Origin: Candidatus Saccharimonadota bacterium
Lineage (GTDB): Archaea; Nanohalarchaeota; Nanosalinia; Nanosalinales; Nanosalinaceae
DNA: 32,000 bases
Direction: 5' to 3'
Assembly: GCF_047555085.1 (NCBI RefSeq)
Contig: NZ_CP180230.1
Location: 570,001-602,000 of the forward strand
Shown here: piece after piece, positions 2,387-29,484 of the stretch
How the letters are laid out: each line of letters starts with the position of its first letter
How positions within the stretch are numbered: position 1 is the first letter of the stretch
Position numbers and translations under genes: made by a program
Notes under the pieces: model-generated
What the model was told of the DNA's origin: nothing
Seen by the model: only the letters and a program-made list of their open reading frames with translations
Database searches by the model: none

Positions 2387-3781
2387 ATGGCTTTTACAGA
2401 TGAGATCTATGCATTAGTAGTCGACGATGATCAGGCCTCTGCGGAGACTGCCTCGATGATCATTGATGAGAAGTCTGACTACGTTACTGCAGAATATGTT
2501 ACATCGGGAGAGGCCGCTCTTGAAGTACTTGAATCCGAGAATATACATACTGTTGTATCCGACTACTCTATGCCAGGAATGGACGGCATGGAGCTTCTTG
2601 AGGAAGTAAATGAAAACTACGATCTTCCCTTCATCCTGTACACAGGAGAAGGATCAGAAGAGCTGGCTGTTCAGGCCTTGAAGTCAGGAGCAGAGGACTA
2701 CGTCACTAAAGGAGGAGCTGAAACGTTTGAAGTGCTTGCAAATCGTGTTGAAAATGCAGCTGTAAGTAAAAAAGCCGAGGATGAAGTGAACGTCTTTAAA
2801 GAAGGTGCAGAGAATGCAGGACATGCAATACAGGTTACAGATCCTGAAGGCAGAATAGTTTACGTCAATCCGGCCTTTGAAGATATAACAGGTTATGATG
2901 AATCCGAGGTTATAGGCGAGAACCCCTCGATACTCAGTTCTGGCGAACACGAAGACGAGTTCTATGAGCAGATGTGGACAACTATAGAAGCCGGAGAAGT
3001 GTGGCATGGAGAGATACTAAACGAAGATAGTGAGGGAGAACATTTCTGGGTGGATCAGACTATATCTCCGATTACTGATAACTCTGGAGATTTACAGTAC
3101 CTTATCGCCATAAATACAGATATTACAGATAAGAAAGAGAATAAGCACAGGCGTGAAGTCCTGAACACGATGCTCCGACACGACATCGCCAACAACCAGC
3201 AAGTCATCGCAGGAAACCTCACCATGCTTCAGGAGACAGAACTAGATGATAGACAGCAGGAGTACGTCAATAAGATACAGAGAAATGTAAATCAGAATAC
3301 AGACATCATGCACGGAATCAGAGGCCTTCTAAACGATAAAGACGGTGCTGAAAAGGAGATAGGCCTCAGAGACGTAGTTAATGAGGCACTTGAACAGAAC
3401 AAGACACAGGCAGACAGAAATAATGTAAGAATCAGATCAGATGTAGGAGACTCCTACAATGTAGTAGCAGGGCCTCTACTTGGACAGGCACTATCCAATC
3501 TCGTGGAGAACGCAGTAGTCCATCCTGAAAACGTGGAGAACGTGAGAATCGGCGCAGAGGCCTCTGAAGAAAATATAGAGATTTTCGTATCTGATGACGG
3601 TGATGGCGTGCCGGATGGCTTCAGTTTCGAGAAAGGTGCAAAAGGCGACGATTCCGATGGTACAGGTATCGGCACATGGCTCGTCAAGGAGATAGCAGAA
3701 GAATACGGCAACGGTATCGAAGTTGAGGAGTCTGAAGAAGGTGGCGCCAGATTCAGCATGAGGCTTCAGCAGGCCGAATAA
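2387..3781 (+). CDS. Hybrid sensor histidine kinase (N-terminal receiver, PAS, HisKA-like, HATPase_c)
   Basis: REC: VVDDD...SDYSMPGMDGMELLE...KSGAEDYVTK. PAS: VNPAFEDITGYDESEVIGENPSIL...WHGEILN. H-box: LRHDIANNQQVIAGNL. ATPase: NLVENAVVH, SDDGDGVP, GTGIGTWLV. Confidence 0.85.
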   Translation: MAFTDEIYALVVDDDQASAETASMIIDEKSDYVTAEYVTSGEAALEVLESENIHTVVSDYSMPGMDGMELLEEVNENYDLPFILYTGEGSEELAVQALKSGAEDYVTKGGAETFEVLANRVENAAVSKKAEDEVNVFKEGAENAGHAIQVTDPEGRIVYVNPAFEDITGYDESEVIGENPSILSSGEHEDEFYEQMWTTIEAGEVWHGEILNEDSEGEHFWVDQTISPITDNSGDLQYLIAINTDITDKKENKHRREVLNTMLRHDIANNQQVIAGNLTMLQETELDDRQQEYVNKIQRNVNQNTDIMHGIRGLLNDKDGAEKEIGLRDVVNEALEQNKTQADRNNVRIRSDVGDSYNVVAGPLLGQALSNLVENAVVHPENVENVRIGAEASEENIEIFVSDDGDGVPDGFSFEKGAKGDDSDGTGIGTWLVKEIAEEYGNGIEVEESEEGGARFSMRLQQAE

Positions 3782-6232: not shown

Positions 6233-8008
6233 ATGGTACAGGAAAGAGAGGAAATAGAAGACAGTTACAAATGGAATCTTGAGGAAATGTTTTCAAGCGA
6301 TGAGGAATGGAGCGAAACTTTCGAACAGGCCTCTGAGGAAATCGAAAAATTTGATGAGTATAAAGGAAAAGTTACTGAGCCCGGCGAAACTTTACTTGAA
6401 GTCCTGAAGCTGCGTGAAAAAGTCAAGCGGAAGATCAAGAATCTGGCTTCGTACGCTCAGATGCGTTACGATCAGGATACACGGAATCAGGAGTATCAGG
6501 CGCTTAAATCCAAGGCCTCTACACTCTCATCCGAGTTTTCTTCTGCTACAAGCTTTATCGAGCCGGAGATCCAGGACGCTGGAGAGGAACGTATACAGGA
6601 ATTGATCGAGGAAGAGGAAGATCTGGAAGTCTACAGGCATTACTTCGATGATGTTCTGCGTTTCAGGCCTCACACACTGTCTAAAAGCGAGGAAAAGCTT
6701 GTTTCCTCTCTGGGTGATGTCCTGGATGCACCGGACGATGCGTACAAGATGCTGATGAACGCTGATATGACGTTCCCTGAAGTCCAGACGCCTGAAGGCG
6801 AAAAAGTCGAGATCACTCAGAGCAACTTCACAAAGTTCCTGAAGAACAGCGATAGAGAATTCAGAAAGGAAGTATACGAAAAGTTCTACGACGAGATCGA
6901 TACAGTGAGGAATACTGTAACTTCCACTTTCCAGAAGAACGTGAAGCGTAACGTCAAGATGGCGGATATACGTGACTATGATTCGGCGCGAGAGGCCTCT
7001 CTGTTCAGTTCAAATATTCCTGTAGATGTGTACGATAATCTTGTGGATTCTGTAGAGGCCAATCTCGATGCTTTACACAGACATCTCGAGTTGAAGGAGT
7101 CTGTGCTTGACGTCGATCAGTTAGGAATGGAAGATGTCTACATGCCGGTCGCTACTTCAGATGAGCCGGAGATAGATTTCGAGGAAGCGAAGGAGTACGT
7201 GTTAAAGGCTGTCGAGCCGCTGGGCGAGAAGTATCAGGAGGCGATGCGTGAAGGTCTTGAAAGCGGATGGGTTGATGTCTACGAGAATCGTGGAAAGCGT
7301 TCAGGAGCTTACTCCGGTGGAACATATGATTCGATGCCGTACATCCTCCTCAATTACCAGGACGATGTCAACTCTATGTATACACTTGCCCATGAACTCG
7401 GCCACTCCATGCATTCATACTTCTCCACAGGCAATCAGCCGTACGTATACGGCGGCTACAAGATCTTCGTCGCAGAAGTCGCATCGACAGTTAACGAGGC
7501 CTTGTTGACGAGATACCTGATGGAGAATGCGCCTGAAGAAGTCAGGAAACATGCTTTGAGCCATTACCTGGAAAATTTCAGGAACACGCTGTTCAGACAG
7601 ACGATGTTCGCAGACTTCGAACAACGTGTGCATGAGGAAGTTGAGGATGGCGAAGCACTGACCTCGAAGAAACTGAATGAGATGTATGGAGGCCTGAAGG
7701 AGGATTACTACAGGCCTGCAGATGTGGATGAGCGTATCGAGAGGGAGTGGATGCGTATCCCGCATTTCTACTACAACTTCTACGTCTACCAGTACGCTAC
7801 AGGTATCTCTGCTGCAGAGACGCTTGTAGAAAAGATCAAAGATGAAGGGCCTGAAGACTACATCGAATTCCTGAAGACAGGATCATCCAAGTATCCACTG
7901 GAGGCCCTGAAAGTTGCAGGTGTAGACATGGAGGATCCTGAAGCAGTAGAGAAAGCTATAGAACATTACAGGGAACACATAGAGAAAGGAGAGGAAATGT
8001 TCGAATAG
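6233..8008 (+). CDS. pepF: Oligoendopeptidase F (M3B family metallopeptidase)
   Basis: 591 aa with the HExxH zinc site in TLAHELGHSMH. Overall length and layout are typical of PepF. Confidence 0.9.
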   Translation: MVQEREEIEDSYKWNLEEMFSSDEEWSETFEQASEEIEKFDEYKGKVTEPGETLLEVLKLREKVKRKIKNLASYAQMRYDQDTRNQEYQALKSKASTLSSEFSSATSFIEPEIQDAGEERIQELIEEEEDLEVYRHYFDDVLRFRPHTLSKSEEKLVSSLGDVLDAPDDAYKMLMNADMTFPEVQTPEGEKVEITQSNFTKFLKNSDREFRKEVYEKFYDEIDTVRNTVTSTFQKNVKRNVKMADIRDYDSAREASLFSSNIPVDVYDNLVDSVEANLDALHRHLELKESVLDVDQLGMEDVYMPVATSDEPEIDFEEAKEYVLKAVEPLGEKYQEAMREGLESGWVDVYENRGKRSGAYSGGTYDSMPYILLNYQDDVNSMYTLAHELGHSMHSYFSTGNQPYVYGGYKIFVAEVASTVNEALLTRYLMENAPEEVRKHALSHYLENFRNTLFRQTMFADFEQRVHEEVEDGEALTSKKLNEMYGGLKEDYYRPADVDERIEREWMRIPHFYYNFYVYQYATGISAAETLVEKIKDEGPEDYIEFLKTGSSKYPLEALKVAGVDMEDPEAVEKAIEHYREHIEKGEEMFE

Positions 8009-9561: not shown

Positions 9562-11499
9562 TCAGATATCCTTCCTCTTCATCAACTGGGCGTTGAAAGC
9601 CACTATTACAGTGGATAACGACATCACAAGCGCACCAACTGCTGGCTGAAGTGTCAATCCAATCGGTGCTGCAACTCCAGCGGCCAGAGGGATTGCAAAC
9701 GCGTTGTAGCCTGTGGCCCAGAAAAGGTTCTGCACCATCTTGGAGTAGGTCAATTCGCTGATGTTCATGACCTTCACGATACCCATCGGGCTGTCGTTAA
9801 CCAGTACAATGTCGGCTGATTCAACAGCTACATCTGTACCACTGCCGATTGCAACACCTATATCTGCTCTTGTCAATGCAACTGCATCGTTCACTCCGTC
9901 TCCAACCATCATGACTTCTCCGTCTTCCTGGAGTTCTCTGACTTTATCGTCTTTCTCATCTGGTAGCACTTCTGCAAACCAGTTGTCGATTCCCAGTTCT
10001 TCAGCTACTGCAGAGGCCACGTCCTCCGAGTCTCCGGTAATCATGGCAACTTCAACTCCTTTCTCATGCAGCTCTTCAATGGCCTCATAGCTTTCCTCTC
10101 TGATATGATCCCCCAGGGATACAGCGCCGATTACCTCGTCCTTGATCAGGTATACAACGGTACGGCCTTTATCACCTTCTTCCTCCGCAAATTCCTCAAA
10201 GCTGTTCTCTACGCCAAGCTCTTCCAGCATTTTAGGGCCTCCTGCATGGAATGTCTCTCCATCGATATCTGCCTTGACTCCTTTACCTTTGATTGCTTCA
10301 AAGCTGTCTGTCTCGTGAAGTTCAAGGCCTCTGTCCTCTGCTTCCTCTACAATGGCCTGTCCTATAACGTGTTCCGAGTTTTTCTCGATTGAGGCCAGTT
10401 TTGCGAAGTCTTCGTCGCTGATATCGGTTCTCTCAACTTTCTGCTCTCCCTCTGTTAGCGTGCCTGTCTTGTCCAGTGCTACCGTATCTATCTGTCGGGC
10501 CTGTTCAAGAGCTGTTCTCTGCCTGACAACCACTCCGTTGCTGGCGCTCATAGCTGTACTTATCGATACTACAAGAGGTATTGCAAGGCCAAGCGCGTGA
10601 GGACACGCGATAACAAGAACTGTGACTACTCTTTCCAGCGTGGTTATTCCGAGGCCTGTTGCAAGGGTCCATGCGAGGCCTGTAACAAATGCTGATCCCA
10701 GTGCGATGTAGAAAAGCCATCCTGCGGCCTTATCTGCGAGCAGCTGTGTCTCCGTCTTGTCCTCCTGGGCCTCGTCGACCAGCTTCATTATACCTGAGAG
10801 AGCTGTATCTTCGCCTGTCGCTGTAATCTTTACTCTGAGAGCTCCTTCCTTGTTGACAGTTCCTCCAATCACTTCATCTCCTTCTGACTTGCTTACAGGC
10901 TCTGATTCTCCTGTAATCATTGATTCATCGATAGATGAATCGCCTTCAACTACTTCTCCGTCCGCAGGAATCGAGCTGCCAGGCCTTACCAGAACTATGT
11001 CGCCTTCTTCAAGTTCGGAGACCTTTACTTCTTCTGTCTCGTCTCCGTCGACTACTTTCTCCGCTGTATTCGGTACAAGTTTCTTGAGTTCGTCCAGCGC
11101 GGAAGAGGCCTGACGTACAGATCTCATCTCTATCCAGTGGCCGAGTAGCATGATGTCGATCAGTGTTACCAGTTCCCAGAAAAAGCTGGAGGTAGTATTG
11201 AGGAAAAGCGAGGCCATGCTGTATGTGAAGGCCACTATTATTGCCAGCGAGATTAAGGCCATCATACCCGGCTTTCTGTCCTCTAACTCATCCTTGCCCA
11301 TTTTCAGGAATGGAAGGCCTCCGTATGCGAAAATTATTACGGAGAAAACCGGTACTGTCAGGTTGCTGCCATAAAATTCGATCGGTGTATAGTTGAAGAG
11401 GCCTGAGATAAAAGTCGAAAAGTAAAGTACAGGTATAGAAAGTAGCGTGGATACGAAGAATTTTTTCCTGAACATCATCTCGTGGTGTTTGTGGCTCAT
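9562..11499 (-). CDS. copB: Copper-transporting P1B-type ATPase, CopB-like (CPH motif, His-rich N-terminus, no HMA domain)
   Basis: MSHKHHEMM N-terminus, TGESEPV, the transmembrane IACPHALGLAIPLV (CPH), DKTGTLTEG, ITGD and GDGVNDAVAL. Confidence 0.88.
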   Translation of the reverse strand: MSHKHHEMMFRKKFFVSTLLSIPVLYFSTFISGLFNYTPIEFYGSNLTVPVFSVIIFAYGGLPFLKMGKDELEDRKPGMMALISLAIIVAFTYSMASLFLNTTSSFFWELVTLIDIMLLGHWIEMRSVRQASSALDELKKLVPNTAEKVVDGDETEEVKVSELEEGDIVLVRPGSSIPADGEVVEGDSSIDESMITGESEPVSKSEGDEVIGGTVNKEGALRVKITATGEDTALSGIMKLVDEAQEDKTETQLLADKAAGWLFYIALGSAFVTGLAWTLATGLGITTLERVVTVLVIACPHALGLAIPLVVSISTAMSASNGVVVRQRTALEQARQIDTVALDKTGTLTEGEQKVERTDISDEDFAKLASIEKNSEHVIGQAIVEEAEDRGLELHETDSFEAIKGKGVKADIDGETFHAGGPKMLEELGVENSFEEFAEEEGDKGRTVVYLIKDEVIGAVSLGDHIREESYEAIEELHEKGVEVAMITGDSEDVASAVAEELGIDNWFAEVLPDEKDDKVRELQEDGEVMMVGDGVNDAVALTRADIGVAIGSGTDVAVESADIVLVNDSPMGIVKVMNISELTYSKMVQNLFWATGYNAFAIPLAAGVAAPIGLTLQPAVGALVMSLSTVIVAFNAQLMKRKDI

Positions 11500-15838: not shown

Positions 15839-15950
15839 ACACTAAACAGGTATTCAGGAAATTGAAAAACAACGAGGTTACTCCAAAGAAACGGGACTTG
15901 TAGTAGACCTGTAATGCCAAAGTCCAAGCTATTTGTGAGGAAGAATTATG

Positions 15951-16022
15951 AGCCCCATCCGAGATTTGAACCCGGGATCTCGTCCTTACCAAGGACGCGC
16001 TCTACCGCTGAGCCAATGGGGC
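15951..16022 (-). tRNA. tRNA-Thr (anticodon GGU), no encoded CCA
   Basis: Hand-folded cloverleaf: acceptor GCCCCAT/ATGGGGC, D arm GCTC-AGCGGTA-GAGC, anticodon arm CGTCC-TTGGTAA-GGACG, T arm CCGGG-TTCAAAT-CTCGG. Confidence 0.9.
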
Positions 16023-16320: not shown

Positions 16321-17673
16321 TTATCTGTCGTAGTTAGAATTTGGCAGATAAATATCGAATGATGGTGGTTTCAGGCCTGGCAGTATCTCGATGTCATGGC
16401 CGCTGGTATCTTTCCTGTCTCTCGAGTTGAATCCTTCAGGTACTGCACCCGGCTTTCTTGCTCCGAACACGTTGCCGTCTTTATCTACTACTTCATCTCC
16501 TCCGAGCTTGTCATATCTTACAAAGATTCTGGTAGGGCCTCCATCCTTGCTTACGTTGAACTCTCCTATTGTTTTAACGATTTTTGTAGGTGAAAGGAGG
16601 CCTTCGGCTTCAAGAGCGTTACATAGCTCTCCAACGATTTTTTCTGTAGTTTTCCTATTTTGATTTACATTATCGCTTGGCGAGTCATCTTGTTTTGGAT
16701 ATATGGTGGCAAGTTTTACAGCTGTCTCCTTTCCCTTGTTCTTCAGGCTTTCAGCGTTTCTTCCAAACTTGTTTTCACTTTCCATACCCTTAAGAACAGG
16801 CATAACTGCTTCTGCCACACGCAGAACTTCGTCCTCGTTTTCTGGATTGACAGCTACGTGAATCTTCCATCCCTGTGAAGCTGTTTTCCCGCTGTGCACC
16901 ATCCAGTTGAACCTTTTACCGCCGCTTTTGTGGACCCAGGCCCAGCGCCCCTTCCAGATGTCTGCACTGTTTTTACTCCAGTCAGGCTCAGTAGTAGGAT
17001 CTTTAGCCACTAACTGCCATGGCTCTGAAAGACTTGAACCTGTATCATCTGAACCATCTGAAGAATCATCAGAGGCCTCCGGAGCGTATTTTTTACTCAG
17101 AATGTTGCTGACTCTCTCCGCACGTTTATGGAGTTCTGTTTCAATTTCATCTTTTTCCAGACCGTGCTCATCCAAAATATCAGTTAAAATGGATTCAAGC
17201 TGCTGAACTTTCTTCCCTTTCCTGTCAAGCTCTTCTATCTTCCTCCCGAGCTCGTTAATCTGTTTCTCCTCCTTTCCTGCGATTTTTCCGAGGCCTGAGT
17301 CCTGAAGGCGTGAGGCGATACTTTCCAGCTCTCTGTCCTCTTCGGAGGCCTTGGATACATCCCGCTCAAGTTTATTTCTCAGATCTGATAGTCTTCTGGC
17401 ATTCCGGATGGAGGCCTCCAGCTGTTTCCCTATCTCCTGCTTTCTGGCGTTCTGTATCTCGGTGAGATAATCTTTCAGGACATCGGCAGAGCTATCAGTT
17501 AAAGAGATTTTAAGACCGTCTATACCGAAATCCACTGAGTCTGGATCTACTTCAAGGCCTTGCTTACTGATTATTACTCTTGCAAGTGAGAATCTTTCAG
17601 AGGCCTCTAAATCACGTTTAGTCGAAGTTATATCGCTTGCCAGGGCCTCCACTGCATCGCTGTAAGAAGTCAT
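16321..17673 (-). CDS. Cluster gene E: N-terminal coiled-coil adaptor plus a C-terminal domain with phospho-Ser/Thr-lyase-like (OspF/SpvC/HopA1/LanL-lyase) motifs
   Basis: 450 aa. The ATG immediately follows the stop of the JAMM gene (GGAGGA-TAA-ATG). Residues 1-190 align without gaps to the JAMM protein N-terminus (about 31% identity over residues 101-170). The C-terminal part has QGWK270-I-H272-V, NK302F and KLATIYP. The coding call is confident; the functional call is about 0.4. Confidence 0.8.
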   Translation of the reverse strand: MTSYSDAVEALASDITSTKRDLEASERFSLARVIISKQGLEVDPDSVDFGIDGLKISLTDSSADVLKDYLTEIQNARKQEIGKQLEASIRNARRLSDLRNKLERDVSKASEEDRELESIASRLQDSGLGKIAGKEEKQINELGRKIEELDRKGKKVQQLESILTDILDEHGLEKDEIETELHKRAERVSNILSKKYAPEASDDSSDGSDDTGSSLSEPWQLVAKDPTTEPDWSKNSADIWKGRWAWVHKSGGKRFNWMVHSGKTASQGWKIHVAVNPENEDEVLRVAEAVMPVLKGMESENKFGRNAESLKNKGKETAVKLATIYPKQDDSPSDNVNQNRKTTEKIVGELCNALEAEGLLSPTKIVKTIGEFNVSKDGGPTRIFVRYDKLGGDEVVDKDGNVFGARKPGAVPEGFNSRDRKDTSGHDIEILPGLKPPSFDIYLPNSNYDR

Positions 17674-18813
17674 TTATCCTCCACCACTGAACTCTGTTGG
17701 TTCTGGAAGTTTTTCGAAGCTGTATCCTGATGCTATGTTGCTCCATTCCTCGTCAAGTTCTTCACGCCATTCGCTGAACTCTCCGGAACTTTTTCTGTCG
17801 AAAGTGTTCAGTTCCGGATCTCTGGAGTTGCCTTTAAGCAGTACTTTTTTCGGAGTTACAAGCATTCCTATGTATCCTTCTCCCTGTTCCTTGAAATTTT
17901 CTATATCGCCTTCCGACCAGCTTTCAGCGTATTTTGGACCGTAACGATGTATTGTGCCAACCGAGTGCGTATGGAATTCTACAAGTCTGTACTTGGCATA
18001 ATTTTCTATCAGTTGGTTGGCTGCTCTCAGTCGGGCCTCATCCGGGGAAACTGACTGCTCATCCCCTACACCGGTCTTCAGAGTTTTCAGTACTGTCCAG
18101 TCTTTCCCTTCTTTCCTGCATATAAGGAGGCCTGTGATCTCCTCATTGTATGTATTAGCTGCGTGACGCAGATTCTGGAGGAACTCTTTATCGATGAATA
18201 TCTTTGTGTTTCCGCTTTTTCTTTCAGAGGCCTCTCCTGCATTTTCAAGTACAACGCCTATGACGTTCTTTCGATGCTTCAGTGATTCCACTATTCTGTG
18301 GCTTTCAGCGTAGCTTTCAAGATTTTCGTATTCGCTGAGCAATGTCTCAAGTTTTTCCTGCCTTTCCATAAGGCCTGAAAGCCTGTTCCCCATCTCCTGC
18401 ATCTGCTCTCCCTCATAATCGACTTCTGCAAGAAGATGTGCATCTTTTAATCGCCTTGCGATATTTTCAAGTTCTTTTCCTTCTCCTACAGCTTTCTCAA
18501 GCTCTGATACAAGCTGATCAGAAAGTGAGAAAAGCATGCTGTACTCGTTTTTCTTGTTTGGTGATGTATGCGTTGAATCCAGTTTTTTCGCCCATTCCAG
18601 ATTCTCGTCTATGGCCTGACTGTACTGCTGCAGAAGAGTTCTCCCGTCGTCGCTCAGATGTATCGTGCAGGCCTCGCAGATATTTTCCACTTCATCGATA
18701 TCGGAGTTATTTGAAAGCAGAAGGCCTAGAGCTTCTTCTCTGTCTCTTCCGTCGGGGACTTCCAGGCGTTCACTCAGTACGGCTTTGAACTGGCTGTAGT
18801 AGTTCTCACTCAT
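17674..18813 (-). CDS. Cluster gene D: coiled-coil adaptor plus a JAMM/MPN+ (JAB) metalloprotease domain
   Basis: NEEITGLL (Glu225/226) ... EFH282TH284S...S301EGD304 gives E...HxH...SxxD. The ATG at 18813 (or GTG at 18816) overlaps the stop of gene C (ATGAGTGA) and is preceded by a GGGGGAG Shine-Dalgarno-like run. Confidence 0.8.
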   Translation of the reverse strand: MSENYYSQFKAVLSERLEVPDGRDREEALGLLLSNNSDIDEVENICEACTIHLSDDGRTLLQQYSQAIDENLEWAKKLDSTHTSPNKKNEYSMLFSLSDQLVSELEKAVGEGKELENIARRLKDAHLLAEVDYEGEQMQEMGNRLSGLMERQEKLETLLSEYENLESYAESHRIVESLKHRKNVIGVVLENAGEASERKSGNTKIFIDKEFLQNLRHAANTYNEEITGLLICRKEGKDWTVLKTLKTGVGDEQSVSPDEARLRAANQLIENYAKYRLVEFHTHSVGTIHRYGPKYAESWSEGDIENFKEQGEGYIGMLVTPKKVLLKGNSRDPELNTFDRKSSGEFSEWREELDEEWSNIASGYSFEKLPEPTEFSGGG

Positions 18814-19630
18814 CACTCTCCCCCAGTAGATTGATTATACGTCTTATCCTGTCTATGTCTTCTTCCAGTTCATCTATTTCCTCGTCCATCAGCTCATTGA
18901 TCTCGTCTTCAGCATCTGATAGAATTCTTATAACTTGTTCAAGTTCTCTGGCAGTTGTCTCGGCTTCTTCATCGGCCTCTTCTTCCTCGCCTTCATCTAT
19001 TTCATCTTCTTCACGGGCCTCTTCTTCCTCGATCTGCTCTTCTTCGGTTTCTGCCCTGTCCAGTGCTTCTTTAGTGGCCTCTATACCTTCCACCATCTGT
19101 CCGACACCGCTTGAAGTGGCCTTAACTGATGCTCCGGTAATGTAAGCTGATCCTGCTATAGTTCCTCCGACTCCTCCGATAAGTATGAACAGTGTTCCTG
19201 CAAGGATCATGAATGTGAATGCGAGAAGAATCATTGACTGCCAGCCTCTTATCAGGCCTGTGAATCCTGCTGATCCAACTACGGTAAGCGTTATCAGTAG
19301 TGTAAGTACCGCAAGTACGTTTCTGCTATCATCGTCTGTAAGGCCTACAGCATCCTGGAACGGCGTGTCCATGTTGCTGTCTTCGAGGTTCTTATCGAGG
19401 TACTGGAGCGCTATCTTGAAGATTACGTATGCGGATACCCACATAACGGAGAATGTTGCGAGTATGCCAAGCACGTGGTATGGTTCCGAGACTCTTATTC
19501 CGAATACCTGTGATAGAAGTTCTGGAAGAGATGCAGATCCATACCCGTAGTATCCTCCGTTAGTTATCTGTGCAGATGTGGATGGTATGAAGGCTGTAAA
19601 CAGTAAAACCAGTTTTCTCCAGCGCCCCAT
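18806..19630 (-). CDS. Cluster gene C: signal peptide, 3 TM helices, then an acidic coiled-coil tail (short paralogue of gene A)
   Basis: The N-terminal 160 aa are collinear with gene A: signal peptide ending TSAQITNGG, helices LGILATFSVMWVSAYVIF, VLAVLTLLITLTVVG and the identical GLIRGWQSMILLAFTFMI. The tail then carries ARELEQVIRIL. Confidence 0.8.
   Translation of the reverse strand: MGRWRKLVLLFTAFIPSTSAQITNGGYYGYGSASLPELLSQVFGIRVSEPYHVLGILATFSVMWVSAYVIFKIALQYLDKNLEDSNMDTPFQDAVGLTDDDSRNVLAVLTLLITLTVVGSAGFTGLIRGWQSMILLAFTFMILAGTLFILIGGVGGTIAGSAYITGASVKATSSGVGQMVEGIEATKEALDRAETEEEQIEEEEAREEDEIDEGEEEEADEEAETTARELEQVIRILSDAEDEINELMDEEIDELEEDIDRIRRIINLLGESDE
19206..19258. repeat. 53-nt block nearly identical (2 mismatches) to 22904-22956; encodes GLIRGWQSMILLAFTFMI in gene C
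   Basis: Compared directly: atcatgaatgtgaatgcgagaagaatcattgactgccagcctcttatcaggcc versus atcatgaacgtgaatgcgagaaggatcattgactgccagcctcttatcaggcc. Confidence 0.85.
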
Positions 19631-19653
19631 GCCGTAAAATTATCGGTTCGTGG

Positions 19654-19661
19654 TTATAAGA
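19654..19661 (-). promoter_or_regulatory. TATA-like box (minus strand tcttataa) at -24..-31 of the gene C ATG
   Basis: Read directly. A T-run (ttcttcttttttg on the minus strand) lies further upstream, just downstream of the gene B stop. This suggests C-D-E is its own transcription unit. Confidence 0.4.
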
Positions 19662-19724
19662 GTTTACAAGAAAACGGCGTTTTCAATCAAAAAAGAAGAA
19701 TAAGAAGGGAGAAGTCAGGATGGC

Positions 19725-21110
19725 TCAGGGCATCCTGGCCATGCTTTCTATCTCTTCCCTGAACTCCTCGACAGCATCGTATTCTTCGCCAGTAGCATCT
19801 TCTACGTGAGACTGGACTCTCTCCGTCAGCGAATGGATGCCATAATCGTCCTCTGCAGTGATATCATCAAGGCCAAGGTGATCGTACAGACCTACAACTT
19901 CATCAAGACGTGTACCAACACGTACATCTTCCTCATCAAGCCTGTCTGTTATTGCTTCAGCTGCCTGTGCGTAATCCGTTACTGCATCCTCCAGGTAGTC
20001 GATTCTTGTCAAAGCACGCTTTGCAACTGCATTGGCTGCTCTGCTGATATCCTGTACTACGCCCTGCTGGTCCTGTGAAAGCTCCGGTGAGCCTGGAAGT
20101 GTTTCTGGAACAGATTTAGCTTCATAAACGTCGCGCATGTTCCCAAGGCTGGATAGTGTGATGAAAAGATCCTCTATGCTCTCTGCCTGATCCTCAACAT
20201 ACTCTATCACATCGGTAGAGAACTCAACATGAACCTCTTCAAGTTCATCCATCCTGTCCGTTCTCTCTGAGACAAGATCCTGTTTCTCATCCTTGAGTGT
20301 AGAACGCTGTTCCTGAGCATCAGATCTAACTTCCTGTTTCTCCTCTTCAAGCTCTTCACGGCGCTCCTCATACTCGGATTCAGCCTCTTCCACAGTAGTT
20401 CTGAAGCTTCCCGAGATATCATCCCATTCCTGCTGCCACATATCATTCGTCTCATCGTAGGACGACTCATCAAGATCAGAAGTGGACATGCCAGAAACCT
20501 GAGACTTCAGATCTCCAACTTCTTCCTCCTTCTCCCGTTCAGCCTGCTCAATACGCTCATCTCTTCTTTCCTCAGCCTGCTCAATCTCCTGCTCAATCTC
20601 ATCAACACGCTCCCGCTCCCTGTCGGAAACATTGCTTATCAGGCCTGTAAACTGCTGGACCTGTGATGAGAGAGTATCAACAGCAGCAGAGTTGGACTGG
20701 AGATATTCCATCAAGCTCTGATCCTCATCAGCAAACTCGATGCGCTCTCCATCCTCCTCAAGATACTTTAAATCAACCAGCTCCCACTCATCATCTACTT
20801 CTGCAAGACCTGTCTCACGGGCATCCGCAAGGAACCTGTTAACAGGCTGATTCTCATCACCAGCTCTGCTTTCAAGCCTGCTCTTCAGATCACGGAACTG
20901 TATTTCTCTCTGTCTCTGTTTCCCAAGCGCATTGCCGTACTCCGACTCAGCACTCTGGGCCTCTCTAGCAAGTTCATCTTCATCAAGAACATTTGCATTA
21001 GCATGAGTTCCAGCACGTCTGTTCGCAGGATTTCCATTAACCTCAGCCTCTCTCCCTTCAAGTTCAAAACCAAATTCTTCCTCTACAGTCTCCTCTCCAT
21101 TATCATCCAT
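19725..21110 (-). CDS. Cluster gene B: highly acidic soluble coiled-coil protein (461 aa), unknown function
   Basis: Long ORF with no TM helix and extended Glu/Asp/Arg-rich helical repeats. A GGTGA Shine-Dalgarno lies 7 nt upstream of the ATG. Confidence 0.7.
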   Translation of the reverse strand: MDDNGEETVEEEFGFELEGREAEVNGNPANRRAGTHANANVLDEDELAREAQSAESEYGNALGKQRQREIQFRDLKSRLESRAGDENQPVNRFLADARETGLAEVDDEWELVDLKYLEEDGERIEFADEDQSLMEYLQSNSAAVDTLSSQVQQFTGLISNVSDRERERVDEIEQEIEQAEERRDERIEQAEREKEEEVGDLKSQVSGMSTSDLDESSYDETNDMWQQEWDDISGSFRTTVEEAESEYEERREELEEEKQEVRSDAQEQRSTLKDEKQDLVSERTDRMDELEEVHVEFSTDVIEYVEDQAESIEDLFITLSSLGNMRDVYEAKSVPETLPGSPELSQDQQGVVQDISRAANAVAKRALTRIDYLEDAVTDYAQAAEAITDRLDEEDVRVGTRLDEVVGLYDHLGLDDITAEDDYGIHSLTERVQSHVEDATGEEYDAVEEFREEIESMARMP

Positions 21111-21231
21111 ATTGTAATCACCAGGGTATAGTAAAGCACGTGAGAATTATATACTTAATCCTGGCCTTAGATTTGAACAGAATCATTTAAGACCACTGAG
21201 AAAAATTATGATCGCTGCTAGGACGTCTTCA

Positions 21232-23313
21232 TTAACTCTCAAACGTGTAAAAAACTTCTTCAATTCTCTCTCTTTCAATATTCCTGAAAACGTCTCCTGT
21301 TGCCGGGCAGAAGCACACGCCAATACTCTCCGTGTCAACGAACACACAAGGAAAAACACCGCCGCCTACACGATAAAAACCGAGGCTGACAAACGCATCA
21401 TCAATGAAATCCCTGACAGGCCTCCATGCACCAACTTTGGAGCTGTTAAGCTCATCTACAAGCCTGTGATCATATATAGGCCTGAAGTTATGGATAAGGA
21501 ATCCAAGATAAACCGCATTCACAAGATCAGAATCAAAACGCAGAGAATCAAACGCTTCGGACAGCAAAATATTCTTCCTGTCCCTATCAGGAATTTTTGA
21601 AGAATTTATATCGCTATTTATGGACTCGAAGACATTAACAAGCTCTTCACCAACCTTGCTTTTCCTGCTTATGTCTCTGGACTTGATAAAATTCCTTATG
21701 TCTCCTTCAAATCTTTTGATAAGGCCTCTGGATTTCTTATCAAATTCAAAAGCTTTTTTGCCAGTATGGCTTCCTGCCGACATACCGATATCTACTTTCA
21801 AAGTTGTATTGCTTTTTCCGGAAGGAAAAATAGTTAGTCCAGGCCTTATCGAAGCTTCAGCTTCTGCTTCGCTGTCAAAACTTACAAATTTGGCTGTACT
21901 GATGCCAGTACTGCTTGAGTCGATGATCTGTTCTGTCAGTATTTTTCTTACATCTATTGCGTTTCTTAGGGCGTCAAGGCCTCCTATATGGGATTCAAGC
22001 TCCTTGATGTGCTCCTCTAAATCTTTCAGTCTTTCGTCCATATCTCTTATGCGCTCAAGTTCTTTCTTCAGCTCCTTCAGTTGATTTATCTCGTACTCGT
22101 ATTCTTCTGCAATTTTTCTCCTGTTTCTGGATGACTCCAGATGATCTATTAGCTCTTGAAGATCTTTTTCCTCATCCACAGCATGGCCTATCTCGGCCTC
22201 AAGGCCTTCGATTAAATCCTGTAACTCGCTGTAAATCCTGTTGTTGGCCTCCAAGTCAGATACCTGATTTTTCAATCTTTCAAGTTCATTCAGGTACTGC
22301 TCCAGCAAGTCCAGTTCCTCTTCCGTGACCGGCAAAGCTCCTGCAGAATTTATTATATCTCTGAAACGTGCTTCAGCTTCACCTGAGGCCTCGTTAAGTG
22401 AAAGAAGCTCTTCCAGTTCATCCCTACTTATTTCAAGTCTCTCTACTACATTCCTGAGATTTTCGAATCCTTCATGTCCCTCCTGTACTCCAAGAGCTCT
22501 CAGTAACTCTTTCAAGGCCTGCAAATCATTTTTCAGATTTTCAAGCTCTGTGCTGATACTTCCCTCTATCCTGTTCTCTATATCCTCGATCAACTGTATG
22601 ACTCTTTCAAGCCTGTTAGCTATATCCTCTAACTCTCTTTCTACTTCACTCGCTCCACGACTGCCTGTATCTGTTGAACTGTCAGTATCGCCTTCCTCTT
22701 TTCTTCGTGCATCATCCTCTTCCCTGTCGATGCTTTCCTCAAGTTCCTCGACTTCATCCTCTTCCCCTCTTATCTTCTCAACCTCTTCTGAGGCCTCTTT
22801 CACTCCTCTGGCAACTGATTTAGCGGATTTACCGAGTAGATATCCGCCGCCTCCCAGTATAAAGCCTGTGCCTCCTATAAGTACGAACATCAGGCCTGCT
22901 ATAATCATGAACGTGAATGCGAGAAGGATCATTGACTGCCAGCCTCTTATCAGGCCGTAAAACGCTCCTGTGCCGATGACGCTGAGAGTTACAAGTAGAG
23001 TGAGTACCGCCAGAATATTCCTGTCCTCGCTCCTGGCAATTCCAAATGCGTCAGCAAATCCGTTGCGTCCGTCAAGGCCTTCATCCAGCTTCCCTATAGC
23101 TATCTTGAAGATTAAATACGCGGACAGCCACATCAGGCCGAAAGTAGCAAGCAGTCCTATCAGTTCTGTAGGATTTCCGATGTTGATCCCCAGTAGTTCT
23201 GATAGAAGAGCAGGTATAGACGCTGTGCTTCCGAAGCCTCCTCCGGTTATCTGCGCAGAGGCCTCAGACAAAAGAAGCGAAAACACAAGTACTAGCTGGG
23301 AAAGCCTCTTCAT
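21232..23313 (-). CDS. Cluster gene A: signal peptide, 3 TM helices, about 280 aa of coiled coil, and an unknown C-terminal globular domain of about 230 aa
   Basis: 693 aa. The signal peptide ends EASAQITGGG and the TM helices are paralogous to gene C. RELEDIANRL sits at aa 226-235. The C-terminal domain (STGISTAKFVSF...FYRVGGGVFPCVFVDTESIGVCFCPATGD...) matches nothing I recognise. Confidence 0.8.
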   Translation of the reverse strand: MKRLSQLVLVFSLLLSEASAQITGGGFGSTASIPALLSELLGINIGNPTELIGLLATFGLMWLSAYLIFKIAIGKLDEGLDGRNGFADAFGIARSEDRNILAVLTLLVTLSVIGTGAFYGLIRGWQSMILLAFTFMIIAGLMFVLIGGTGFILGGGGYLLGKSAKSVARGVKEASEEVEKIRGEEDEVEELEESIDREEDDARRKEEGDTDSSTDTGSRGASEVERELEDIANRLERVIQLIEDIENRIEGSISTELENLKNDLQALKELLRALGVQEGHEGFENLRNVVERLEISRDELEELLSLNEASGEAEARFRDIINSAGALPVTEEELDLLEQYLNELERLKNQVSDLEANNRIYSELQDLIEGLEAEIGHAVDEEKDLQELIDHLESSRNRRKIAEEYEYEINQLKELKKELERIRDMDERLKDLEEHIKELESHIGGLDALRNAIDVRKILTEQIIDSSSTGISTAKFVSFDSEAEAEASIRPGLTIFPSGKSNTTLKVDIGMSAGSHTGKKAFEFDKKSRGLIKRFEGDIRNFIKSRDISRKSKVGEELVNVFESINSDINSSKIPDRDRKNILLSEAFDSLRFDSDLVNAVYLGFLIHNFRPIYDHRLVDELNSSKVGAWRPVRDFIDDAFVSLGFYRVGGGVFPCVFVDTESIGVCFCPATGDVFRNIERERIEEVFYTFES
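22904..22956. repeat. Partner of the 53-nt conserved block at 19206-19258 (gene A copy)
   Basis: See 19206-19258. The flanking paralogous sequence is much more diverged at the nucleotide level. Confidence 0.85.
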
Positions 23314-23336: not shown

Positions 23337-23344
23337 AATATAAA
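23337..23344 (-). promoter_or_regulatory. TATA-like box (minus strand tttatatt) at -24..-31 of the gene A ATG
   Basis: Read directly, in the 242-bp divergent region shared with the AbrB-like gene. Confidence 0.4.
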
Positions 23345-23555
23345 GATGGAAGAACACCTCAAAAATTCATCTCCCACGTTCAGCCCACGCACAGTTTAAA
23401 AATATGGCAGCTACAATTTCTGTCTGTGGTTCACAAATGAAAGGTGAATACGATCATCTCTCCAGAAGGAGAGAAAGCGGAAGAAAAGTTACAGAATAGT
23501 TCTCAAAATCTTCTAGATAGTTCAAGCGATTCCTGCAGCTCTTCACCAATCAAAG

Positions 23556-23804
23556 GTGAAGGCGTTCACGGAAAGCTTCTCAACAACTCTTGACTCAAAA
23601 GGCCGTGTAACTTTACCTGCCAGTGTCAGAAGGAAGCTAGGCCTCGAGAAAGGAGACAAAGTGAAGATCTCCGCAAAAAATCCCCGCATCCGGAGTAGAG
23701 AGGCCTCATGTATTGAGGAGGCTCTGAGCTTTCTGCAGGAATTTGATTCCGTGGAAACTTTCTCCTTCAACGGGGAAAGAGTTGAGGTGGTTCTAAGTGG
23801 ATAG
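23556..23804 (+). CDS. AbrB/SpoVT/MazE-family DNA-binding protein (antitoxin-like)
   Basis: DSKGRVTLPASVRRKLGLEKGDKVKI is a typical swapped-hairpin AbrB motif. GTG start, with no in-frame ATG available upstream. Confidence 0.75.
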   Translation: MKAFTESFSTTLDSKGRVTLPASVRRKLGLEKGDKVKISAKNPRIRSREASCIEEALSFLQEFDSVETFSFNGERVEVVLSG

Positions 23805-24378
23805 CCTCGAGTTCACGGATCTAAGTTACGAACCCGGTGAGTACTCTCTAAGCGACGAAAAGATGGAATCAGCTGTGATAGGTATGTACCAGAGAGTGTT
23901 CAATAACTCTCCTTACGGGGAGAACTTTGACTACGAACTGGCTGAAGATATTGTCCAGGGAATCCGGGGAAAGGATACGGAAGGCCTTCTTGCTGTTCAG
24001 GACGGTATGCCTGTCGGATTTGCATGGGGAGAAGTTCTGGAGCCGGGGGATAGGGAAATTTTTCCGGATGAAATCCCTGGAGAATTCTTCGATGGAAGTA
24101 GTTACTACTTCGCTGAGCTCGGTGTACTACCGGATTACCGTGATCAGGGCCTCGGTAAAGAGCTAAAGAGGCGGGAGCTGGAGAAAGTTAAAAACCGTGA
24201 AGATATCGATAAAGGCCTGATGCGGACATCTGTGGAGGAGAACGATAAGAAGCTGGGTCTTGACAGCGATCTGGGATTCGAGGCCTTGGAGCCTGATGGA
24301 GAACCTGTAACAGAGGAGGTTGAATCCGTGGGAGTTGAAGGAAGTGATCTCCGTGGCTACTTCTGGAGGCCTGTATGA
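23797..24378 (+). CDS. GNAT-family N-acetyltransferase; start uncertain (GTG at 23797 overlapping the AbrB stop, or ATG at 23863)
   Basis: AELGVLPDYRDQGLGKELKRREL matches the acetyl-CoA-binding motif A (R/Q-x-x-G-x-G/A). Confidence 0.7.
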   Translation: MDSLEFTDLSYEPGEYSLSDEKMESAVIGMYQRVFNNSPYGENFDYELAEDIVQGIRGKDTEGLLAVQDGMPVGFAWGEVLEPGDREIFPDEIPGEFFDGSSYYFAELGVLPDYRDQGLGKELKRRELEKVKNREDIDKGLMRTSVEENDKKLGLDSDLGFEALEPDGEPVTEEVESVGVEGSDLRGYFWRPV

Positions 24379-28746: not shown

Positions 28747-29484
28747 ATGGAACCTGTAAATCCTGAACTAGTGCCACGGAAAGGCCTCAAGAAAGAGGAG
28801 ATGAAGAATCTACAGAGAAATATAGCGGAGAAAGCAGTATTCCAGGACAGATTCAAGTTCAGTGCAGAAAGGCCTGAAGAGCTGACAGTGGCCGGAGTAG
28901 ATCAGGCCTTTACCGACGATAAATCCGTCAGCGCAGCCGTTGTCATGGAGGACGGCGAAGTAATCGAAGAGGCCTCCGCAGCCGCTGAACTCGATATACC
29001 GTACATCCCCGGACTTCTGGCATTCAGGGAAGGCGAGTCGATAGTCAAGGCCCTGGGAAATCTTGATGCGGAACCTGATATTCTTTTTCTGGATGGAAGC
29101 GGGCGTATACACTTCCGAGAGGCCGGTATTGCCACGCACATAGGAGTGATATTTGATGAACCTTCTATAGGGATCGCAAAGAATCTTCTCTGCGGTGAAA
29201 CCAGCTGGAACGGCGGAAAACTTGAGCAGGGTCGTAAAATACCGGTCACAGCCAGTGAAAAAGTTGAAAACACAGAGAACGGGGAAATAATCGGGTACAC
29301 ATTCCAGTCAAAGCAGTACACCGGCGACAGAAAAATCAATCCGCTTTACGTAAGTCCCGGCCACAGAATCAGCGCTGGCTCATCAGTGAAGATTGTGGAA
29401 GAGTTCTGCCAGAACTACAAACTTCCTGAACCTACCAGACTTGCGGATAAACGTGTAAGTGAACTCAAAGACGAATACCGGTAG
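28747..29484 (+). CDS. nfi: Endonuclease V (deoxyinosine 3' endonuclease)
   Basis: VAGVDQAF, PYIPGLLAFREGE, LFLDGSGRIHFREAGIATHIGV, IGIAKNLL and YVSPGHRIS are canonical EndoV blocks. Confidence 0.9.
   Translation: MEPVNPELVPRKGLKKEEMKNLQRNIAEKAVFQDRFKFSAERPEELTVAGVDQAFTDDKSVSAAVVMEDGEVIEEASAAAELDIPYIPGLLAFREGESIVKALGNLDAEPDILFLDGSGRIHFREAGIATHIGVIFDEPSIGIAKNLLCGETSWNGGKLEQGRKIPVTASEKVENTENGEIIGYTFQSKQYTGDRKINPLYVSPGHRISAGSSVKIVEEFCQNYKLPEPTRLADKRVSELKDEYR

Follow-up and report, generated by a model that had tools for sequence, protein, structure and literature searches.

A nanohaloarchaeal gene cassette with a predicted membrane scaffold and enzymes expected to erase protein modifications

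Genes and products of the cassette

The window analysed here is a stretch of 32,000 nt (G000:C1:570001-602000) from a nanohaloarchaeal genome of genus g1, family f1, which is 1.046 Mb long, assembled as one contig and 95.9% complete. Five consecutive genes on the minus strand, A to E, make up a cassette for two membrane proteins, an acidic coiled-coil protein and two proteins with enzymatic heads on a common adaptor. An earlier note, made from the sequence alone, had suggested that these genes could encode a membrane-docked scaffold with two enzymes that erase post-translational modifications, and its positions and lengths agree with the open reading frames, D being 379 aa when read from its ATG.

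A (21232..23313, 693 aa) and C (18806..19630, 274 aa) are membrane paralogues, sharing 44% identity over residues 1-250 (E 4e-59). Each begins with a Sec-type signal peptide closing on a conserved SAQIT motif, followed by glycine-rich, GxxxG-rich hydrophobic segments that hold invariant residues in alignments of homologues, and then by an acidic helical tail, which in C spans residues ~165-274. The signal peptide and long acidic tail proposed earlier are borne out, and the count of three transmembrane helices is corrected to three or four. The last hydrophobic block, residues 124-160, may be one segment or two, and for this reason we infer, and do not read directly, that the tail lies on the cytoplasmic side. 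A differs from C in having a longer acidic coiled coil and an extra C-terminal domain of ~230 aa. The model of this domain is poor (pLDDT 58); it found no match with Foldseek and only weak transglutaminase/papain-like look-alikes (VIA Z≤5.5), and no Cys or His of the domain is conserved across homologues. The domain is therefore probably non-catalytic and has no assigned fold.

B (19725..21110, 461 aa) co-occurs with A in relatives. It is a soluble, hyper-acidic coiled-coil protein, as had been described, without a hydrophobic segment and with a net charge of -89; the proteins of the window are strongly acidic. B has no recognisable domain in Pfam, NCBIfam, PHROGs, PADLOC or Atlas, and Atlas feature and structure searches with B and with the A C-terminal domain returned only generic coiled-coil proteins or weak look-alikes. 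With C, the Atlas leads were weak (<0.9) and pointed to proteins of other DPANN archaea that are annotated as hypothetical. Comparison of A, B and C with FtsZ, SepF, CdvB/ESCRT, S-layer and PGF-CTERM proteins yielded nonspecific coiled-coil matches in Pfam, NCBIfam and PHROGs and nothing in Atlas; no match to a known cell-division or S-layer locus came out.

D (17674..18813) and E (16321..17673, 450 aa) open with the homologous N-terminal module that the note had seen, here termed the adaptor: the two copies are 28% identical over ~125 aa (BLASTP E 1e-7), and the module is helical and ~190 aa long. It covers residues ~1-195 of D and ~1-215 of E, where an 'EPW' junction at residue 217 leads into the head (residues ~218-450). 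In genome searches the E module recovers D and the D module recovers E, and the E module also faintly matches the helical region of A. The start of D is ATG 18813, and the public cluster member P0014 likewise begins at ATG; a GTG at 18816, 3 nt upstream, gives a reading of 380 aa, and residue numbers of D follow the P0004 numbering, which counts from this GTG.

The head of D has the JAMM/MPN fold. Its AlphaFold2 model (pLDDT 82) is matched best in Foldseek by Pyrococcus JAMM1 (5ld9, TMt 0.78), and further top matches are the archaeal Rpn11 homologue of Caldiarchaeum, Cap3 of the cyclic-oligonucleotide-based antiphage signalling system (CBASS), BubCD of the Bub anti-phage system, CSN5 and AMSH. 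A PDB sequence search with the D family gave no significant relative. The candidate active site, with putative zinc and water ligands E226, H282-x-H284 and S301-x2-D304, is kept across 14 homologues. JAMM enzymes of this kind remove ubiquitin-like tags. No other JAMM protein was found in the genome.

The head of E is assigned to the phospho-Ser/Thr lyases, whose motifs the note had recognised; it belongs to the LanKC/LanL (RamC_N) branch and not to the OspF/SpvC sequence family. Both bacterial effectors and lanthipeptide synthetases are known to include phosphothreonine lyases. E scores 38.7 bits against Pfam RamC_N (gathering score 27) and matches the NCBIfam LanL/LanKC models weakly. A PDB search with the single E sequence found no significant relative, and a profile of the E family found the LanKC lyase domain (8sao, 8sap and 8sam, E 3.5e-4), with the motifs QGWKIHV and K…TIYP in register. 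Residues K270, H272, K320 and Y325, the catalytic set, do not vary across 7 homologues and correspond to the K/H/K/Y residues described for the phosphothreonine-lyase mechanism of SpvC and LanL, two branches with a common fold and catalytic logic (PMC4159009). The genome holds this one lyase domain only. With catalytic residues kept in both heads, neither D nor E ends in a non-enzymatic fold.

The genes for C, D and E are closely joined, as previously noted. At the C/D junction (18806..18830) a GGGGGAG Shine-Dalgarno-like motif precedes the overlap ATGAGTGA at 18813-18806, in which the TGA of C lies over the ATG of D; at the D/E junction (17671..17690) a GGAGGA motif precedes the TAA of D, which abuts the ATG of E (TAAATG, 17676-17671). 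Overlaps of the C/D type with an upstream GGGAGA-type motif recur in 5 related loci, L001, L030, L031 and L003 among them (ATGGATGA, ATGGTTGA and similar). Because this architecture recurs, it points to selected, coupled translation from C to D and on to E. An AT-rich, TATA-like element read by eye at 23338..23352 on the minus strand, ~35 nt upstream of the A start, is a possible promoter of the cassette.

Docking model and a natural fusion

Complex prediction supports docking of the D adaptor on the predicted cytoplasmic helix of C. With C tail residues 160-274 and D adaptor residues 1-200 both entered with alignments, the predicted interface reached an ipSAE of 0.78 (runs 0.80/0.72/0.78), against 0.27 for the best control; in the calibration of the tool, the mark was reached by 58 of 80 solved complexes and by 2 of 110 mismatched pairs. 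In the model, helix 179-271 of C runs along helices 68-182 of the D adaptor, with a pLDDT of at least 75 for the partner and a contact agreement of at least 58% across runs.

A natural fusion bears on the same arrangement. P0079, a 656-aa protein of another nanohaloarchaeon, joins the membrane module of A/C, with its coiled coil, directly to a lyase head; this head is 37% identical to that of E (E 4e-27), and their catalytic motifs line up. As Rosetta-stone evidence, this fusion suggests that lyase and membrane module cooperate, and do so on one side of the membrane. P0079 is encoded on a 6254-bp Logan contig (SRR33394503), where the neighbouring genes encode 554 aa and 348 aa. Family and structure matches, the C-D model and the fusion are together consistent with the scaffold envisaged in the earlier note, in which C or A would present D and E through the adaptor; its wider reading of scaffold plus erasing enzymes is partly supported.

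Distribution and variable content of the locus

The neighbourhood check that the note had called for shows the five-gene set to be syntenic in related genomes and variable in content. C and D form the core, present in every locus, and A and B are found in some. The window has A, B, C, D and E with the lyase head. In G004 (L031) the order is A, B, C, D and E′, a 790-aa protein whose adaptor is the same and whose head is a PPP-type phosphoesterase; G003 (L030) and the metagenomic contig L001 have C, D and E′ with the PPP head, and the metagenomic contig L003 has A, B, C and D and no E. GDxxDRG/GNHx motifs mark the PPP head, which is also matched by Metallophos and by PPP models of the ApaH/PrpE type. 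Since the E slot of relatives holds either a lyase or a PPP-superfamily head on the same adaptor, it is predicted to house a phospho-eraser that is either irreversible (by β-elimination) or hydrolytic, and the logic of a conserved module with variable heads, put forward earlier, holds for the locus.

G002 has a second C–D–[adaptor + lyase] copy adjoining tRNA-Thr (L029, G002:C7:780000-798418). Here C is followed by an adaptor-plus-lyase frame that crosses an assembly gap (Ns) into JAMM-like sequence, which fits either a fusion or two genes split by the gap; the copy is flanked by two tRNA-Thr genes. Downstream of A-B-C-D, L003 offers a different context (L003:15843-22127), with genes for a DUF3467 protein, a Cdc6-like AAA+ ATPase, a DUF389 protein and a PIN–T2SSE ATPase.

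Homologues of D occur in 5/5 and homologues of E in 4/5 genomes of genus g1, and none were found in 35 other relatives of the family or order, save one weak JAMM-only match. By this distribution, the cassette is lineage-restricted and confined to one genus. The profile of the A/C membrane module recovered 42 proteins among 1.84 billion cluster representatives, every named one nanohaloarchaeal; Candidatus Nanosalina sp. and Nanohaloarchaea archaeon H01 are the sole named sources of homologues for A and the wider A/C module family, and a search of GTDB species genomes gave no locus related to A. On this evidence the A/C coiled-coil membrane module appears confined to nanohaloarchaea. Phage and plasmid collections held no relative of D or of the E lyase head.

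The cassette occupies a fixed position. On the A side it is bounded by genes for a MazE/AbrB-like antitoxin (Pfam MazE_antitoxin, 37 bits) and a GNAT acetyltransferase (23556..24378, plus strand), which overlap, stand at the cassette edge in all related loci and may form a GNAT-toxin/antitoxin pair. Together with histidyl-tRNA synthetase (HisRS) they form a block, HisRS–GNAT–MazE/AbrB-like antitoxin, that immediately precedes the cassette in every related locus, and the neighbourhood (YGR210-like GTPase, HisRS) agrees with that of Ca. Nanosalina and of metagenomic nanohaloarchaeal contigs. Taken with the named A/C homologues and the acidity of the proteins, this neighbourhood points to a place for the genome in the Nanohaloarchaeota (DPANN). 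On the E side the boundary is a tRNA-Thr(GGT) gene (15950..16022, minus strand), found at the cassette end in 4 loci (the window, L001, L029 and L030). A mobile island integrated at this tRNA gene was considered and rejected: the genome has no att-like duplicate of the tRNA-Thr 3′ end, hence no evidence for an integrated element, and no integrase lies nearby.

Elsewhere in the window, 2387-3781 (plus strand) encodes a hybrid of response regulator, PAS and histidine kinase (HisKA and HATPase), a type of protein unusual in reduced DPANN-like genomes. More ordinary genes encode a P-type ATPase (9562-11499, minus strand), an M3 oligopeptidase (6233-8008, plus strand) and endonuclease V (28747-29484, plus strand).

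A proposed membrane-docked eraser platform and its alternatives

We favour, at an even chance, the reading of the cassette as a membrane-docked platform whose enzymes erase modifications of proteins, namely isopeptide conjugates and phosphate on phosphoserine (pSer) and phosphothreonine (pThr). C, joined in some strains by A with its partner B, would sit in the membrane with its long acidic helix in the cytoplasm, and D and E would dock onto this helix through their common adaptor. D, as a JAMM/MPN zinc metalloprotease, would be expected to cut isopeptide-linked conjugates, for example of ubiquitin-like proteins, or peptide bonds. The E lyase would β-eliminate phosphate from pSer/pThr irreversibly, leaving dehydroalanine or dehydrobutyrine, and a PPP-type phosphatase would fill the same slot in relatives. 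Coupled translation would supply C, D and E in fixed proportion and so favour their co-assembly, and the substrates would be encoded outside the cassette.

Partners that would make substrates for D and E are not obvious in the genome, which encodes no ubiquitin-like protein of the ThiS/MoaD type and no eukaryotic-type Ser/Thr kinase above cut-off; ThiF was matched only below cut-off, at another genome locus. Within the cassette, as the earlier note had remarked, no ubiquitin-like protein, E1, E2 or kinase is seen, the lack of a kinase domain extending to E itself, and a ubiquitin-like conjugation system is rejected for want of the first three. A genome search for LanC_like proteins found none, a weak negative given that its control also gave no match. 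From the lack of ThiS/MoaD, of a kinase above cut-off and of LanC it follows that the platform most likely acts on proteins that another party has phosphorylated, conjugated or both, this party probably being the haloarchaeal host where the membranes are in contact, or else on the symbiont's own proteins carrying marks from unidentified enzymes.

Several observations weigh against the platform. The HxH–SxxD spacing in D is 16 residues in place of the canonical 7, the H284-WSxxD loop being ~10 residues longer than in Rpn11 or AMSH, so the activity of D is not certain. If the block at residues 124-160 of A and C is two segments, the acidic tail would lie outside the cell. The C-D model pairs long helices, and pairs of this kind tend to pass falsely. 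No substrate candidate was found for D or E, and no public sequencing runs holding the cassette are listed.

What the platform might serve can be read in other ways. An antiviral role, in which the platform would sense infection and erase marks on viral or host proteins, is unlikely in our judgement. Nanohaloarchaea carry viruses, and variable content at a fixed locus is typical of defence islands; here such a locus is bounded by a possible toxin-antitoxin pair and a tRNA gene, heads are exchanged in the E slot in a polymorphic manner, and Cap3 and BubCD are among the closest solved folds to D. Against this, neither the cassette nor its surroundings show a hallmark of defence such as a nucleotide cyclase, a ubiquitin-like protein or E1/E2; the PADLOC matches are weak and of coiled-coil type only, and no homologues turned up in phage and plasmid records. 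We also place at a low probability a symbiont–host interface at which a platform at the attachment site would strip phosphates and ubiquitin-like tags from host proteins and silence signalling in the manner of OspF/SpvC/HopAI1. The interchange of irreversible and reversible phospho-erasers in the E slot would suit such a role, as would a symbiont genome without a ubiquitin-like protein or a eukaryotic-type kinase above cut-off and the restriction of the cassette to an obligate episymbiont lineage. Yet neither D nor E has a signal peptide or secretion motif, so the 'delivery' to a host that the earlier note had entertained finds no support in their sequences, and the role would require that host proteins reach the cytoplasmic face of the symbiont. 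The more specific form of this idea, a contact-site device that would remove host phosphates (irreversibly by the lyase, or by hydrolysis with the PPP head) and small archaeal modifier protein (SAMP) conjugates, and would rewire signalling as an archaeal analogue of OspF/HopAI1-type effectors, is quite unlikely.

Self-regulation, with the platform erasing marks that atypical kinases (RIO/Bud32-type) or unidentified conjugation systems place on the symbiont's own proteins, strikes us as very unlikely. All the enzymes appear cytoplasmic, and a scaffold would bring them to the cell's own membrane proteins; however, the genome has no canonical kinase above cut-off or ubiquitin-like protein, and the spread within one genus and the variable content fit an accessory and not a housekeeping system. 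Highly improbable, finally, is a lanthipeptide-like pathway for peptides that ribosomes synthesize and that are modified post-translationally (RiPPs), in which the lyase would make dehydroalanine or dehydrobutyrine in a precursor peptide that the JAMM enzyme processes. The LanKC/LanL type of the E lyase speaks for it, as does the link of an archaeal BLES03-like phosphothreonine lyase to lanthipeptide-like clusters (PMC4159009). It is rejected as the principal explanation because neither the cassette nor the genome was found to hold a kinase, a LanC cyclase (the search for which is weak), a precursor peptide or a transporter; the cassette has no precursor-like peptide and no small open reading frame rich in Ser, Thr or Cys.

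Comparison with described systems places the proposed eraser platform among known parts. LanKC/LanL, the class III/IV lanthipeptide synthetases, share with E the homologous RamC_N lyase domain and the K-x-H…K…Y set, whereas the E head stands alone on a helical adaptor, without a kinase or cyclase domain; its neighbours are a membrane scaffold and a JAMM enzyme, and in relatives a PPP phosphatase can take its place. The OspF/SpvC/HopAI1 effectors carry out the same irreversible pSer/pThr β-elimination as is expected of E; unlike them, E belongs to the LanKC branch, has no secretion signal, does not come from a pathogen and would act on a membrane platform. D has its fold and E/HxH/SxxD motif in common with archaeal JAMM/MPN deconjugases (Pyrococcus and Haloferax JAMM1, the Caldiarchaeum Rpn11 homologue) and, likewise, with the JAMM parts of defence systems (CBASS Cap3, BubCD/BilD of Bub/Bil), and differs from all of these in its long helical adaptor, its long HxH–SxxD loop and its coupling to a membrane protein. 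SAMP/JAMM, Bil/Bub and CBASS Cap2/Cap3 include a ubiquitin-like protein with E1 (ThiF) and/or E2; the cassette offers D none of these partners, nor does the genome above cut-off. Polymorphic toxin and effector systems (Zhang et al. 2012, PMC3482391) have the same constant N-terminal module, exchangeable heads and variable locus, here with JAMM, lyase or PPP heads; the cassette, in contrast, has no secretion or trafficking domain and no repeat-based delivery; no immunity-like gene was found, and the heads would be erasers of protein modifications where those systems carry nucleases and toxins. As far as visible, the cassette thus appears to follow the logic of module and exchangeable head and not to be a toxin system.

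Every enzyme domain of the cassette can be assigned to a known family (JAMM, LanKC/LanL-type phosphothreonine lyase or PPP), and what appears new is their combination. To our knowledge, no described system joins a constant JAMM enzyme and an exchangeable phospho-eraser slot through a shared adaptor to a membrane scaffold. With the P0079 fusion and the head exchanges, one can test cleanly, by comparison, which domains interact. If the reading is true, DPANN symbionts would have yielded their first sign of a machine for erasing modifications: a lineage-specific archaeal lyase that sits on a membrane platform together with a JAMM enzyme and can trade places with a phosphatase. The cassette would give a concrete handle on how protein modifications, with the host's as the most plausible ones, might be acted upon by these symbionts, and if its targets are host proteins, it would provide a testable mechanism for the manipulation of haloarchaeal hosts by nanohaloarchaea, a long-standing question.

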